NCBI RefSeq assembly: GCF_016903815.1
Contig: NZ_CP069973.1
Direction: 5' to 3' (one strand)
Origin: Escherichia coli
GTDB lineage: Bacteria; Pseudomonadota; Gammaproteobacteria; Enterobacterales; Enterobacteriaceae
Length of the DNA stretch: 64,000 nt
The notes under the pieces were generated by a model. That model was not told the origin of the DNA and made no database searches. It worked only from the letters and a program-made list of their open reading frames with translations. This document shows positions 13,799-23,894 of the stretch, one piece after another (the first letter of the stretch is position 1; each line of letters opens with the position of its first letter). Position numbers and translations under genes: made by a program.

Positions 13799-16700
13799 TT
13801 ACCAGTCGGCGTAAGGTATCAGCGGCTGCGGCGGTAAATCCATGTCACCCTGCCATCCGGCGGCGGAATAACGTACGTAGAGCAGGAAATGGCTGGGTGC
13901 GTAATCTTTCGCCTGCTGGATATCAATTGCCGTGCCGACAAACCAGTTGGAAGTAACACGTCGTTCAAGTAATGCCCGCGCCGTGTAGCCAAAGCCCTGA
14001 CTGCTGCCGCCATCGTTCGATTGCCGCGCAGCTTCTTCCTGCCAGTCGGTCGGGATCAGATTCATCAGCGGATAACGCGGCATGGTTTTGGTGCGTGAAT
14101 GCGACCACGAGCCAGACGCCCCCAGCTCCCACGACCAGTTTTCCGTCCGCTCACGCCACATCACCGGTATGGCAAACGACAGGTATTCCTGCGGGCTGTA
14201 GTAACCGCCCTGACCGAGTGAGTAGCCACTCAGGTCTTTGTCGTAATGCCAGATCATGTTGTTCAGGCCGATTGTGACGCGGCGATTGTTCTGGTTAATG
14301 ACCTTATAGTAATAGCCCGTCATCCAGCGCACACGCCAGTTATCTTCGACATTTTTACCGGTTAACTGGTCACCGCTAAGCGATGCCCAGACGCCGTTTG
14401 CTTCACCTTTATCGTAGCTCAGGCTTAGCCCCACGCCGTCGGCACGCACGCCACCCCATTTTTTCCCGGTATTGCTCGGGGAGTCTTTTTGCCCGCCAAA
14501 GGCCAGCAAAGAACTGGAAATGGGCCGACGATGGGCGTTAACGGTGTAACCCAGCGGCCCGATATCATCGCTGTAACTGATGCCGCCGACCACATCCACC
14601 ACGTTGAAGCCCATCGGCGTGGTACCGATATCCCAGCTCCAGACGTCATTTCGCCAGCCGACCGCCACGCTGGCACCGGAATCCGACTGGCTGCGGTTGC
14701 CGCTACAGTCCTGTAATGTACAGGTGCCCCAGTTGTCATCCCATTTGCCATCGGCATTCGTGGAGAAACTGCCAACGTTCATATTGACGAAATCACTGCG
14801 AAAGAACATCCGCCCGTCAGAATACGGCGCATCCACCTGCAACATGGTAGTGTGCGCTTTCAGATCGGAGTAACCACCGGTGCCGCTCGAACCCCAGTAA
14901 TCGTGCTCGAGGGTGACGTTAAGATCCTGCTGGCGATAGAGGTCAGCCGCATCGCTGCGCACGCCGCGTTTCAGCCAGTCATCTTTCTCGTCGTTACGGG
15001 TCAGCCGGGTAAAGGTGTCGTTATCCTGCGGACGCGTCGTGGTCACACCGGATGCAACCATGGCGTCTTTGTAGGTTTCCAGCGCCTGCGTTGGATCGCC
15101 CGCCAGCGCTTCAAACTTCGCACCATCACGCAGTACCATCGCGCTTTCCATCGACGGTGGCTGAGATTTTGCCTGCGGGATCAACTTATTAAATGTCTGC
15201 TGCGCCGCTGCGGTATCGCCAAGCTGCGCCTGTGCCAGCGCCGCTCTGTCCTGGTCATGACCAGAGAGATACAGCCCGTAAGCGTAAACCTGCTCCGGGT
15301 CGTTCGGCTTCTGCTGCGCCAGATTACGCATTAACGTATCGGCCTGGCTGCGTTGTCCGGCCTGCCAGAGATCCTGCGAAAGTCGGTAAGTAATCCATAC
15401 GCTGCCGGGGTCCAGCGCCAGTCGTTGCCGCTGAAGTGCTGCCGCCTGCGCCCATTTGCCCTGGTTTTCCAGTGCCTCTGCCTGCTGTGCCAGACGGTCG
15501 TTTTGCAGGCTGCGTTCGATATCATCAATGCTTCGCCGCTGACTGGCAGAGAGCGAGGCGATAAACGCTTCAGCTTTTTCTGGCGATTGCTGGCGGTATA
15601 TATTCGCCAGCCCGCGCACGGCGTTAGTGTTGCCGCTGTCCATACGCAAGGTCTGCTGATAATAACGTTCGGCGGCGGGATAATCTTTTCGCGCCATCGC
15701 CACATCGCCCAGCCCCAGCACTGCATAGCTGTCGGTGTTATCGACATTACGCGCCTGCTGGAACAGGCGTTCTGCCCGGTCAGGATTATTGGCTTTCAGC
15801 GCAGCATCGCCCTGCTGGATCGCCAGCCAGTAGCGGTTTACTTTCAGGAGACTGTTCCATTTGTCGTTGTTGCTGCTGTGCGGATCCAGGGCGAGGGCTT
15901 TTTCCAGATTCGCCACCGCATTGGCGCGATCGCCTTTCTGAGAATACGCCTGGCCCAGCGCCCCCAGAGCCTCACTGTCTTTCGGGTTCGCCCGCACTGC
16001 CTGTTGTAGTTCGGGAATGGCTTTACCCGCCATACCAGAGTCCACCGCCGCTAAACCTTGCGCACGAGCGCGGAAAGCAGGGTCGGCCAGCTGTTTTTGC
16101 TGTTCTGCCAGTTGCGATTGCGCCGCAGCTACGCTATCGCCATCACTAAAGATCGAGAGATATTTTTTCAGCGCCGACACACTGGCATCGCTGACGGGCA
16201 TGTCTTTAATCTGCCCGTACCAGATTTTAGAGGCCCCTTCGCGCCCGGCGTTTGATTTCGCCATCTGTTCCAGGACGGCAAAACCTTCGTCACGGCGATC
16301 GCTACTAAACAGCAATAGCGCCAGATTGTTTTGCAGGCCCGTATTGCCCGGCGTATCCGCATTAATGCGTTTTAGCTGATTAATCGCTTCGCCACGGCGA
16401 GCCGGAATTTTCGCCACCGTACTCCAGTACTCGACGGCAATGTCACCTTCCGGCGGCGCACCGTTGAACAGTTTGTTGTAACTCGCCACAGCTTCTTCTG
16501 CATGACCAGTAGTCGCCTGCAATCTTGCCTGTTGCAGTGCCTGACGACCATCCGGCGTGGAAAGCAACATTGTGGTCCGCGACGATTTATACGCATTTGA
16601 ACTCGGCGCTAACTGCGACAGCCGATCGAGCTGTTTTTGCGCGCCATCAATATCGCCCTGACGTAACAGAGAACGGAAACGGGCGGCAACGACGTCCGGG

Positions 16701-16882
16701 TTATTCGGATCAATAAGTTCCAGACGATACAACGACTGTTGCACCAGGTCTTCACGATGGGTCGCTTCGCCTAACCGAACTTGCTCCAGCAACTGTTGCT
16801 GAGCGGTTGGTGCTGCCTCGACCATCGGCATGACGGCCAGACCGAGGGAAAGCGTGAATATGTTTAGTGTGAATTTGCGCAT
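13799..16882 (-). CDS. bcsC: cellulose synthase outer-membrane subunit BcsC (TPR + beta-barrel), apparently shortened by an in-frame deletion
   Basis: 1027-aa ORF; N-terminus [23 protein letters not shown] and C-terminus ...LIPYADW as expected for BcsC; 19-nt overlap with bcsZ; about 130 codons shorter than the 1157 aa I recall. Confidence 0.85.
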
Positions 16883-17970
16883 TCCTGGCCCCAGTCAGGT
16901 AATAACTCACCTTTTGTCGAGAAGCGGAAACGGTGTTGATCCCAGCCTTGTCCAAACAGGGTCAGCACATAGTTGTAATAGGCATCGCTGCCGGGAAAGT
17001 TATCGGCCACGCGCTGGCGCTGAACGGCCTGCGCATCGCGGTTTTGTAAAAAGGGCAGCATGGCGGCAGAAAAACCGACCGGTCCTTTACCCTGCGCTTT
17101 CCCCGAAGCTACATCGACTTTTTCCGGCGGATAACCGTTTTTCTCGGTGAATGTCGCCATCGGTTTAAACCGGTTGAGCATCCGCGCTTTTTGCGGATCG
17201 CTGTCAGGCATCATGCCTACCCACATGTAAACGCGGATCGCGTCGTAGCTGCTGATCAATGTTTTTTCGGCTTTTAGCTGCCAGCCTTTGTCTTTCTCAT
17301 AGCGCACCCAGTCTGGCGAAAAGCCTTTCGGGGCGGTTTCCAGCAATAAACGTTGATTGGTTTCGCGCAGCGTGGTCCACGGCGCGCCAAAGCGGGTGAA
17401 ATACTGCGCCAGCGTCGGCGGCAGGTAGCTGGGGTTAAAACGCCAGCTGTTATCCTCTGCAAATCCCACTTTGCCCGGCAACAACATGGAACCCAGTCCA
17501 GGCACCGTCACCACTTCCTCCCGCGCAATACGTTTTAACAACGCGCTGCCGATGTCGGTATAACGCTGCTCTTTCCACAAACGCCCCGCCTCCAGCAACG
17601 ACCAGGCCATCCAGACATCACCATCGGAGGCCGAATTGCTGTCCAGCACTTCCCACTTACTGTTCTCTTTCTTGCCCCACAGCCATACGGGCAAGCGTTC
17701 TTTTAAAGAACCCTGAGCGAGATTGTTCTGCGTCCAGTCGAGAATATTATCGAAAGCTGCACGGTCGTTAGCCGCCAGGGCAAAGAACATGCCGTAACTT
17801 TGTCCTTCGGAGGTGGTGATTTTGCGCGCGTCGCTGGGGTCGATGACGCGCCCTTCCTGACTGATGTAATCCTTTTTAAACTGCTCCCAGGCAGGCCAGG
17901 TACAGGCTGCCTGAACACTAAAGGCAGCCAGCAGCAGCATCGTCACGAGTCCACTACGCAACACATTCAT
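16864..17970 (-). CDS. bcsZ: endo-1,4-beta-glucanase (GH8)
   Basis: 368 aa from ATG at 17970 (MNVLRSGLV...); the ORF-track start at 17976 is a TTG. Confidence 0.9.
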
Positions 17971-17976
17971 CTTCAA

Positions 17977-22945: not shown

Positions 22946-23694
22946 GATTTACTCCCGACTGGCGTTTTCAGCCCGGAATAGTTCAACAGGCACCAGTTAG
23001 CCAGCGTCAGTATCTCTTCAGCCGCCAGCGCATCACTGCGATATTCACCGACTGGTTGCTTAGCCGCCAGGCATTCAGCCATCGCTTCATCACGATGAAT
23101 GAGCATCGGCAGTAATCGGCGCTGGCTTTGCAACCAAAGCTGGTAAATATCGTCCTGAACTTGACTGCCGATACGGAAGTCATTAATCAAAATATGCGCG
23201 CCATCCGGCAGCGCCTGCTGATGCAGCCGGATATGGCAGTTGGCATCCACATTGACGATTGCCAGCGAGTGATCGCACAAACTCAGCAGCTGGTGGGTTA
23301 TCTGCGAGGAATCACGCGGTAAGTCGATTAAAATTCACTGGTAACGCCCGCTGGCTTTTAGTTGCTGTAAGCCGGAGCAAATATCGCTCAGCCGGGTTTG
23401 CCAGTGCTGTGGATTTTCTTGTTCTTCAATGGATAACTGACCAAAAGGCAGCAAATCGAGCTGCGAGGTATAGCGCAACCCGGCGTCACGCCAGTCCTGG
23501 TCATCCAGCATAGCTCTGGCCCAGCCCTGACGGTGGGTAAAATCAACGTTAAATGACAGGCGCAACAAGTTGTCCGGGCAGGCATCGACCACCAGGACAT
23601 TTTCTCCCAGCATTTGTAATGACCAGGCTAATGCGGCGGTGATGGTTGTTGTCCCCACGCCTCCCCGCACCCCCTGCAATCCCAGTACGGCCAT
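22942..23694 (-). pseudogene. bcsQ: bcsQ (MinD/ParA-like ATPase) interrupted by an in-frame TGA at codon 120
   Basis: ORFs 23335..23694 and 22942..23280 are in the same frame and together span 753 nt; the only break is TGA at 23335..23337 (...GRYQ*ILIDLPRD...); codon 6 is TTG (23677..23679). Confidence 0.75.
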
Positions 23695-23705
23695 TCACCA
23701 ATCCC

Positions 23706-23894
23706 CTACTTTTGTTGCGCAAACTCTGCCAGCAACGGCCAGCGTTTTAATGCCGCGGCCAACTGTTCGCGTTGGGAAATATCGGCATAATCAATATCAG
23801 GCAGTGAAAATGCCTGCTTTAACGCCAAAATATCATTCTGGAAGATATAGCCTATCGCGGGATCAGGCAGAGTATCTGGTTCATTGTTATTCAT
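23706..23894 (-). CDS. bcsR: small cellulose biosynthesis protein BcsR
   Basis: 62 aa from ATG at 23894 (MNNNEPDTLPDPAIGY...); 11 nt upstream of bcsQ. Confidence 0.8.
   Translation of the reverse strand: MNNNEPDTLPDPAIGYIFQNDILALKQAFSLPDIDYADISQREQLAAALKRWPLLAEFAQQK

Follow-up and report, generated by a model that had tools for sequence, protein, structure and literature searches.

Organization of the bcs locus

The window analysed here is a stretch of 64,000 nucleotides of Escherichia coli DNA that is identical, base for base, to positions 3968964-4032963 of NZ_CP023820.1 (E. coli strain 7/2). According to the annotation of this identical record, the cellulose genes form two divergent operons, R-Q-A-B-Z-C and E-F-G in this order, with pdeK/hmsP and ldr/yhjV as their neighbours, and the gene order is the same in K-12. 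Nine full-length products are expected of a type II (E. coli-type) locus, but here bcsQ is stopped at codon 120 and bcsC lacks 130 codons. The features of the locus are as follows (window coordinates):

6520-7287, minus strand: pdeH, 255 aa, intact, with one lineage-specific synonymous change, H98H, at window position 6994 (annotation and EFF60 comparison)
11729-13717, minus strand: pdeK/hmsP, 662 aa, intact and identical to EFF60 (annotation and EFF60 comparison)
13799-16882, minus strand: bcsC, 1027 aa, shortened in frame by 130 residues within the TPR solenoid, and with an intact BCSC_C beta-barrel domain (ORF, annotation, Pfam)
15234-15242, minus strand: junction of the bcsC deletion, with the one remaining copy of the 9-bp repeat GGCGCTGGC (alignment with intact alleles)
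16864-17970, minus strand: bcsZ, 368 aa, full length, with the lineage-specific change A95V at window position 17687 (annotation and EFF60 comparison)
17977-20316, minus strand: bcsB, 779 aa, intact (annotation; DNA identical to EFF60)
20327-22945, minus strand: bcsA, 872 aa, intact, its ATG overlapping the bcsQ stop (ATGA) (annotation; no difference from EFF60)
22942-23694, minus strand: bcsQ, a pseudogene of 250 codons interrupted by an internal stop (translation; RefSeq 'internal stop')
23335-23337, minus strand: premature TGA of bcsQ (W120*, G360A) (alignment to K-12)
23706-23894, minus strand: bcsR, 62 aa, intact (annotated CDS; DNA identical to EFF60)
24166-25737, plus strand: bcsE, 523 aa, full length, with the lineage-specific change A395G at window position 25349 (annotation and EFF60 comparison)
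25734-25925, plus strand: bcsF, 63 aa, intact (annotation; EFF60 comparison)
25922-27601, plus strand: bcsG, 559 aa, intact (annotation; EFF60 comparison)

EFF60 is a sister strain with intact bcsQ and bcsC. Its bcsR, bcsA, bcsB and bcsF are identical in DNA to those of the window, and bcsG is also listed as identical, although the bcsG of EFF60 carries a stop of its own, Q343*.

The initial annotation had described two separate lesions, in bcsQ and bcsC, which translation, alignment and the recovery of each in 93 genomes now confirm, and had placed every other gene that it checked at its expected length. This is borne out as well, as bcsE, bcsF, bcsG, pdeH and pdeK have the lengths found in K-12 and bcsQ is the only pseudogene flagged within the annotated 64-kb window (RefSeq note 'internal stop'). 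The description of bcsEFG, pdeH and pdeK as intact holds for length, but bcsE, like bcsZ, carries a lineage-specific missense change.

The nonsense codon of bcsQ

Translation of bcsQ reveals a single internal stop at codon 120, which alignment with K-12 attributes to G360A (TGG to TGA). An expectation based on K-12 could suggest the bcsQ mutation of that strain, but the codon is a different one, the TAG at codon 6 of K-12 reading TTG in the window. This G-to-A transition replaces Trp120 by a stop and leaves a product of 119 aa, which matches only positions 1-116 of the 234 positions of the Pfam CBP_BcsQ profile; an intact homologue aligns with PDB chains across residues 1-250 (SIMIBI/MinD-type ATPase, PDB 6YBU). 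As the product ends at residue 119, the complete fold with the trans-acting N152 and R156 and the adenine-binding N171 is missing. The truncated protein retains the P-loop, ends right before the WILIDLP strand and is devoid of D150, N152, R156 and N171, which are required for formation of the ATP-sandwich dimer and for secretion. BcsQ is essential, with N152, R156, N171 and D150 being needed for calcofluor binding, and works stoichiometrically within the BcsERQ complex (PMC7840130). Since BcsQ is essential, W120* alone should abolish cellulose export.

The stop may also act on the downstream genes. The bcsA ATG follows 389 nt downstream, and such a length of untranslated message ahead of a translationally coupled start makes a polar reduction of bcsA-C expression likely, by analogy with K-12. 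The latter is cellulose-negative, repair of its bcsQ stop restores cellulose, and a polar effect has been proposed (Serra et al. 2013 via PMC5944007).

The in-frame deletion of bcsC

The bcsC open reading frame encodes 1027 aa, versus 1157 aa in K-12, EFF60 and AST215, with the same start, stop and flanking junctions as the intact alleles. The whole difference consists of one 390-bp in-frame gap that removes residues 551-680 (equivalently 548-677). In intact bcsC, the segment is bounded by a 9-bp sequence, GGCGCTGGC, that is repeated in direct orientation at nt 1641-1649 and again at nt 2031-2039. Slippage or microhomology-mediated recombination between these two repeats accounts for the loss of the 390 bp.

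The lost segment comprises about 3.5 conserved TPR repeats, is rich in residues that are invariant across 27 Enterobacteriaceae BcsC sequences, and is retained and strongly conserved in all other Enterobacteriaceae BcsC that were aligned. The C-terminal porin domain of 16 strands is kept (Pfam PF05420, BCSC_C, residues 672-1006, E = 2e-120). In AlphaFold2 (AF2) models, intact BcsC has eight helices at residues 545-683, which are replaced by a single hybrid helix (544-553) in the shortened protein, a loss of seven, and pLDDT at the junction is 45-56 versus 78-90 in intact BcsC. Overall confidence in these models is low, at a mean pLDDT of 59-63, the TPR part being informative and the beta-barrel falling below 50 owing to a shallow alignment.

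BcsC has 19 TPRs spanning about 150 A, of which TPR1 binds BcsB while TPR16 and TPR18 contact the putative glucan (PMC11379886). The continuous 19-TPR solenoid of BcsC (PDB 9B8A) is interrupted in the 1027-aa protein, which keeps TPR1-14, including the BcsB-binding TPR1, together with TPR19 and the complete BCSC_C domain, in a numbering that is counted back from TPR19 and hence approximate. At the junction, helix B from one TPR would be fused to a helix A that belongs to a different one, with the seven missing helices corresponding roughly to TPR 15-17 of 19, and the predicted consequence is that the periplasmic solenoid linking BcsB to the outer-membrane pore would be shortened and out of register.

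Distribution and origin of the two lesions

A 101-bp probe for the bcsC deletion junction matched 93 of the 5,426 complete E. coli genomes searched, and the bcsQ stop was present in 99, of which 93 are on the haplotype of the window. The equal counts, 93 and 93, suggest that the same genomes carry both lesions. In addition, the index of the public assembly collection contains this BcsQ fragment of 119 aa, as an exact match, in 2,162 of its blocks. Neither these counts nor the look-up of the fragment in public assemblies yielded a genome with just one lesion. CP062970.1 (L015), with an apparently full-length bcsC next to the BcsQ fragment, was discarded as an intermediate, since 282 Ns fill the deleted segment in what is a reference-guided assembly. 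Of the genomes found to lack the deletion, EFF60 and AST215 are the closest relatives; they have an intact bcsQ and a bcsC of 1157 aa, which places both events on the branch leading to the clade. Both lesions are derived, being absent from EFF60, AST215 and all other Enterobacteriaceae BcsC examined.

Judging by the identity of carrier strains, several of which are documented as ST405, the window probably belongs to ST405 (phylogroup D), within the main clade of this widespread and multidrug-resistant clone. Over a 12-kb region it matches other genomes of the clade with 100% identity. WCHEC96200, published as ST405 and phylogroup D, matches the junction and stop probes, STO_Bone2 (apparently the same as the ST405 strain Bone2) matches both, and several other carriers have '405' in their name.

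The W120* transition extends beyond this clade. It occurs in identical form on at least three bcsQ haplotypes, two besides that of the window, and in other lineages it is found together with an IS1 in bcsE. Import by recombination was considered and rejected, as the flanking haplotype markers in those genomes are of the K-type both at nt 225 and at nt 385, which would confine any imported tract to less than 160 bp; independent mutation is the more likely source of W120* in these lineages, and is favoured by the 37 possible transition-to-stop routes in bcsQ.

Tests for selection on the cellulose genes

Along the branch leading to the clade, the bcs cluster acquired four SNPs and one deletion. 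Across 27 kb, six events are derived in the window, five in the 13.8-kb bcs cluster and one in the 13.1-kb flank, an excess that is not significant (one-sided binomial p ~0.12), and the SNP tally (1 synonymous, 2 missense, 1 nonsense) is too small for dN/dS. The 1027-aa BcsC was compared across 30 variants; of their 36 distinct substitutions, 14 fall at family-invariant sites, versus 0 of 7 in full-length E. coli alleles, which is no more than suggestive of relaxed constraint on the shortened protein (Fisher p = 0.08). The identity of bcsR, bcsA, bcsB, bcsF and bcsG to those of the intact sister points to a recent switch-off and not to long erosion.

Thus, the picture of a decaying pathway drawn in the initial annotation is right as to the two inactivating hits, but overstated given five bcs genes identical to the intact sister. 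The proposed relaxed or negative selection on cellulose production fits with derived lesions and with the convergent loss seen in a published survey (see below); the branch data, however, do not distinguish relaxed selection from positive selection for loss. The suggested survey of bcsQ and bcsC alleles found both lesions recurring in the clade and missing from EFF60 and AST215.

In this context, the lesions may simply have hitch-hiked, as neutral changes, on a recent expansion of the clone that antibiotic resistance was driving, with cellulose being unselected. This possibility deserves consideration but appears doubtful. The clade is very young, with many of its genomes 100% identical over 12 kb, the surplus of changes in the bcs cluster falls short of significance, and the 14 of 36 substitutions at family-invariant positions are near the random expectation of 52%. 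Against pure drift, inactivated bcs genes turn up repeatedly, in most of the major STs covered by the survey data of PMC10881479, EFF60 has its own bcsG stop, W120* is present in other lineages beside an IS1 in bcsE, and an ST95 bcsA mutant was more virulent in the model published there.

Expected phenotype and alternative explanations

The reading that best accounts for the data, and one that we regard as highly probable, is that two unrelated derived mutations switched cellulose off and then spread with the clonal expansion of ST405. Both would have struck the structural operon after the split from the closest intact relatives, whichever came first rendering the other selectively neutral, and the double-lesion genotype would then have been carried through the expansion of ST405. 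Judging from the genes, cellulose production is almost certainly abolished by the two lesions in combination, the expected outcome being no pEtN-cellulose. Indirect evidence on the phenotype is that the ST405 isolate Bone2 does not bind Congo red, i.e. it makes neither curli nor cellulose, a trait that is unspecific for bcs lesions, and the Congo-red data on ST405 in one UTI study say nothing on cellulose.

It is also conceivable that bcsQ is the only lesion and the 1027-aa BcsC a tolerated length variant of the TPR array. The deletion is in frame, and at least 14 further in-frame TPR deletions of BcsC exist in public E. coli proteins, so that variation in array length is common. Yet those alleles may be null themselves, the segment is kept and strongly conserved in every other aligned Enterobacteriaceae BcsC, the 3.5 TPRs lost are no whole number and model confidence falls at the junction, and the supplementary data of a published survey score the bcsC of ST405 as truncated, making the reading of a single hit improbable.

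Alternatively, the operon might be attenuated and not knocked out, with low UGA read-through providing wild-type BcsQ and a working short BcsC, so that cellulose is reduced but non-zero. A UGA followed by A, as found here, is a comparatively leaky stop, and tRNA-Trp would insert at this codon the very residue that was lost; a trace of BcsQ made in this way is possible. BcsC retains TPR1-14, TPR19 and the whole BCSC_C domain, and bcsA, bcsB, bcsF and bcsG are unaltered. Nevertheless, read-through is usually at or below 1%, and BcsQ has a stoichiometric role within BcsERQ. The deletion also takes helices from BcsC in an odd number, together with the conserved region of TPR16, and no dye is bound by Bone2. 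We consider residual cellulose production of this kind unlikely. An extension of the idea, which we hold to be very unlikely, is that W120* works as a recurrent soft-off switch, read-through restoring Trp and a single back-mutation restoring the gene, with the bcsC deletion locking the state in ST405; if so, lineages could lower cellulose to a trace and occasionally raise it again.

Finally, the chance that the lesions reflect faulty sequencing or assembly, or an incorrect reference length, is negligible. We found no evidence for such an error, and it is refuted by the identical recurrence of both lesions in 93 independently assembled complete genomes and thousands of draft contigs.

If cellulose is indeed off, as predicted, essentially the whole main ST405 clade would be genetically cellulose-negative, which helps in understanding how this high-risk clone behaves in biofilm and Congo-red assays, and the 101-bp junction and a single SNP offer two simple diagnostic markers. 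No new question is opened thereby, as the phenomenon and the ST405 gene pair are already published and the bcsQ pseudogene is annotated.

Comparison with known systems

The closest precedent is the survey of Nhu et al. (2024, Nat Commun 15:1441; PMC10881479), which reads bcs inactivation across E. coli as convergent loss followed by clonal expansion; in invasive E. coli, the loss is described as common and possibly advantageous. Its Supplementary Data 3 gives 'truncated.bcsC + truncated.bcsQ' for 88 of 100 ST405 genomes and, alongside a third lesion, for two more, with any bcs lesion in 94% of ST405 genomes. Clone, gene pair and interpretation are the same as here, with 88-90% of genomes there and 93 genomes per lesion here. 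In its text and tables, as far as they bear on these genes, each is scored just as 'truncated', whereas the exact changes and the deletion mechanism are worked out in the present analysis. Thus, the pair of lesions in ST405 is known from the literature and the bcsQ pseudogene from RefSeq, the new elements being the exact lesions and the deletion mechanism, W120* on two other bcsQ backgrounds, and the at least 14 other TPR deletions of BcsC. Cellulose masks curli and dampens inflammation, and the same source associates its loss with increased virulence of invasive E. coli, the sole virulence test in the material considered being that of the ST95 bcsA mutant and not of ST405.

Similar situations are described in the same survey for ST95, ST1193, ST69, ST141, ST11, Shigella and Salmonella serovars, where independent nonsense, frameshift or IS lesions of bcs have likewise been fixed in successful pathogenic clones. 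Multiple hits per operon are common elsewhere too, e.g. in bcsA plus bcsC in ST1193 and ST69, at genes and sites that differ from those of ST405 (PMC10881479). In K-12, too, bcsQ was turned into a pseudogene by one nonsense SNP ahead of the coupled bcsA, with the rest of the locus complete, but the SNP arose at codon 6 (TTG>TAG) and in another phylogroup, and K-12 has a full-length bcsC. The other deletions of BcsC, like the present one, lie entirely within the TPR region and leave the barrel in place, and span 91-276 residues; they differ in their end points, and most occur on few contigs, as compared with at least 1000 contigs for the 1027-aa allele (P0006).

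Two lesions in the cellulose operon

The window matches positions 3968964-4032963 of NZ_CP023820.1, the chromosome of E. coli strain 7/2, at every base. Here, the bcsRQABZC operon lies on the minus strand and the divergent bcsEFG genes on the plus strand; the 19-nt bcsC/bcsZ overlap and the 81-nt spacer to pdeK are both as in K-12. Two genes of the operon carry a lesion:

22942-23694, minus strand: bcsQ, a 250-codon frame with a single internal stop at codon 120 upon translation
23335-23337, minus strand: premature TGA in bcsQ (G360A, TGG>TGA; hereafter W120*), by comparison with K-12
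13799-16882, minus strand: bcsC, encoding 1027 aa versus 1157 aa in K-12

RefSeq already annotates bcsQ as a pseudogene, with the note 'internal stop'. Codon 6, which is TAG in K-12, is TTG in the window, and W120* is thus a different, independent nonsense mutation from the K-12 lesion. The 119-residue product aligns only to the first 116 of the 234 positions in the BcsQ profile and lacks D150, N152, R156 and N171, residues whose mutation lowers or abolishes calcofluor binding, BcsQ being essential for secretion (PMC7840130). The normal stop codon of bcsQ and the start codon of bcsA share the sequence ATGA, and W120* leaves 389 untranslated nt upstream of bcsA. A polar effect of the bcsQ stop has been discussed for K-12 (PMC5944007) and, by analogy, W120* may plausibly act likewise on the downstream genes.

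Probable mechanism and predicted structural consequences of the bcsC deletion

Compared with intact alleles, bcsC of the window has one gap, of 390 bp. The motif GGCGCTGGC occurs twice in the intact bcsC of K-12, EFF60 and AST215 (nt 1641-1649 and nt 2031-2039). A single copy is left in the window, at 15234-15242, and exactly the inter-repeat interval is gone, the signature of a slipped-strand or microhomology-mediated deletion. The missing residues are 551-680 (equivalently 548-677); many positions within this segment are invariant among 27 Enterobacteriaceae BcsC sequences, and the BCSC_C barrel domain is unaffected.

AF2 models of intact and deleted BcsC were both confident in the TPR region and poor in the barrel. 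In the intact model, six helices separate the short helix that holds the left repeat (545-552) from the one with the right repeat (671-683), whereas the deleted model has one hybrid helix (544-553), so that seven helices, or about 3.5 TPRs, are lost. The pLDDT at the junction is 45-56, versus 78-90 in the intact model. Counting backward from TPR19, the lost units would roughly correspond to TPR15-17. In published structures, the 19 TPRs of BcsC extend about 150 A, TPR1 tethers BcsC to the last BcsB subunit, and TPR16 and TPR18 contact a putative cello-oligosaccharide (PMC11379886; PDB 9B8A). We infer that the short BcsC is likely defective, because its solenoid would be shortened and out of register.

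Among public E. coli proteins, at least 14 further in-frame deletions inside BcsC were found, each distinct, of 91-276 residues and in the TPR region (for example del223-318, del522-612, del547-653, del574-727, del214-422 and del278-546), and deletions appear to strike this array repeatedly.

Distribution of the lesions

Three megablast probes, built so that only carriers seed a match, were run against 5,426 complete E. coli genomes. Both claims of the initial annotation, a bcsQ nonsense codon and an in-frame bcsC deletion, were borne out. A 55-mer with the stop at its centre matched 99 genomes and a 101-bp deletion junction 93. A 30-mer that needs both the stop and a nearby clade-specific SNP to match also hit 93, and the junction and stop-haplotype counts, compared as totals, would fit joint fixation of both lesions in a single clade. 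Carriers include STO_Bone2, several strains with '405' in their names, and WCHEC96200, which is ST405 of phylogroup D (PMC5762679).

Relatives were sought with a chimeric query joining the window flanks to the K-12 390-bp segment, in which undeleted close relatives ranked top. EFF60 (99.7% identity to the window) and AST215 (99.1%), the closest found, both have an intact bcsQ and a bcsC of 1157 aa. EFF60, the nearer, has its own bcsG nonsense codon, Q343* (bcsG at 2133-3812 of the extracted locus), a further independent hit on the pathway in a sister lineage, and a G933S change in BcsC.

CP062970.1, deposited as a complete chromosome and the one apparent single-lesion intermediate, was ruled out as such, being an N-filled reference-guided assembly. 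Its 282 Ns lie exactly inside the segment of bcsC deleted in ST405 (18528-18809 of the extracted locus) and it has one ldr copy. The record resembles a reference-guided consensus and might wrongly be taken for an intermediate genotype.

Outside ST405, six complete genomes have the same W120* (TGG>TGA), on two further bcsQ haplotypes. Such recurrence is expected rather than remarkable, since 37 transition routes lead to a stop in bcsQ and the gene has been truncated independently very many times across the species (PMC10881479). In three of the four non-ST405 W120* genomes examined (PF9285, EC812A1 and MSB1_9I, unrelated lineages with a K-12-like bcsQ haplotype), bcsE carries an IS1; the fourth, PI24, has W120* on a third bcsQ haplotype and an intact bcsE. 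In extracted-locus coordinates, the first three loci have:

10669-11421: bcsQ
about 9210-9907: IS1

Additional rearrangements were seen within the clade. GCA_964053735.1, with both lesions, carries a Mu-like prophage (Mor, GemA, Gam and transposase genes) at the bcsA 3' end, at 13347-20360 of the extracted locus, leaving a bcsA product of 865 aa. In another clade locus, the 1027-aa bcsC is split further into 516 and 510 aa, and an IS200-type transposase lies near the ldr array. This array, at 27604-28962 of the window, is a 484-bp tandem repeat of 2.8 copies with an Ldr-family type I toxin gene per copy (three annotated). With two copies in EFF60 and AST215 and one in K-12 and phylogroup-A-like genomes, it is a copy-number polymorphism directly adjoining bcsG.

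Changes on the branch and selection

Polarisation by AST215 and K-12 assigned to the window branch bcsQ T85C (synonymous), W120*, BcsZ A95V (window 17687), BcsE A395G (window 25349) and the bcsC deletion, the two missense changes being lineage-specific and dating to the short branch where the lesions also arose. No changes fell in bcsR, bcsA, bcsB, bcsF, bcsG or pdeK, and the 13-kb flank had one synonymous change. The bcs share of branch events (5/6) is not a significant excess (p ~0.12 by our own arithmetic). The 1027-aa allele has 36 distinct substitutions, near-random with respect to conserved positions, a weak hint in the sequences that constraint may have relaxed after inactivation. Either adaptive loss or drift may underlie the pattern at the bcs locus.

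Comparison with published bcs lesions in clones

The two-lesion observation is real, was read correctly at the outset, and is already known, although 'decaying' is too strong a word for it. Indeed, the screen by Nhu et al. 2024, covering 76 common STs with 100 genomes each, lists for ST405 'truncated.bcsC + truncated.bcsQ' in 88 genomes (Supplementary Data 3), triple truncations with bcsZ (n=1) or bcsE (n=1), and truncation of only bcsB (n=2) or only bcsA (n=2), for some bcs lesion in 94% of ST405 genomes (PMC10881479). ST405 is there placed among the clones expanding clonally after a cellulose loss-of-function mutation, and bcs loss in E. coli, Shigella and Salmonella is read as convergent evolution tied to virulence (PMC10881479). 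The ST405 isolate Bone2 does not bind Congo red (preprint), a result compatible with the predicted cellulose loss, though not cellulose-specific. For the known ST405 pair, the present analysis adds the precise sequence changes and a mechanism for the deletion.
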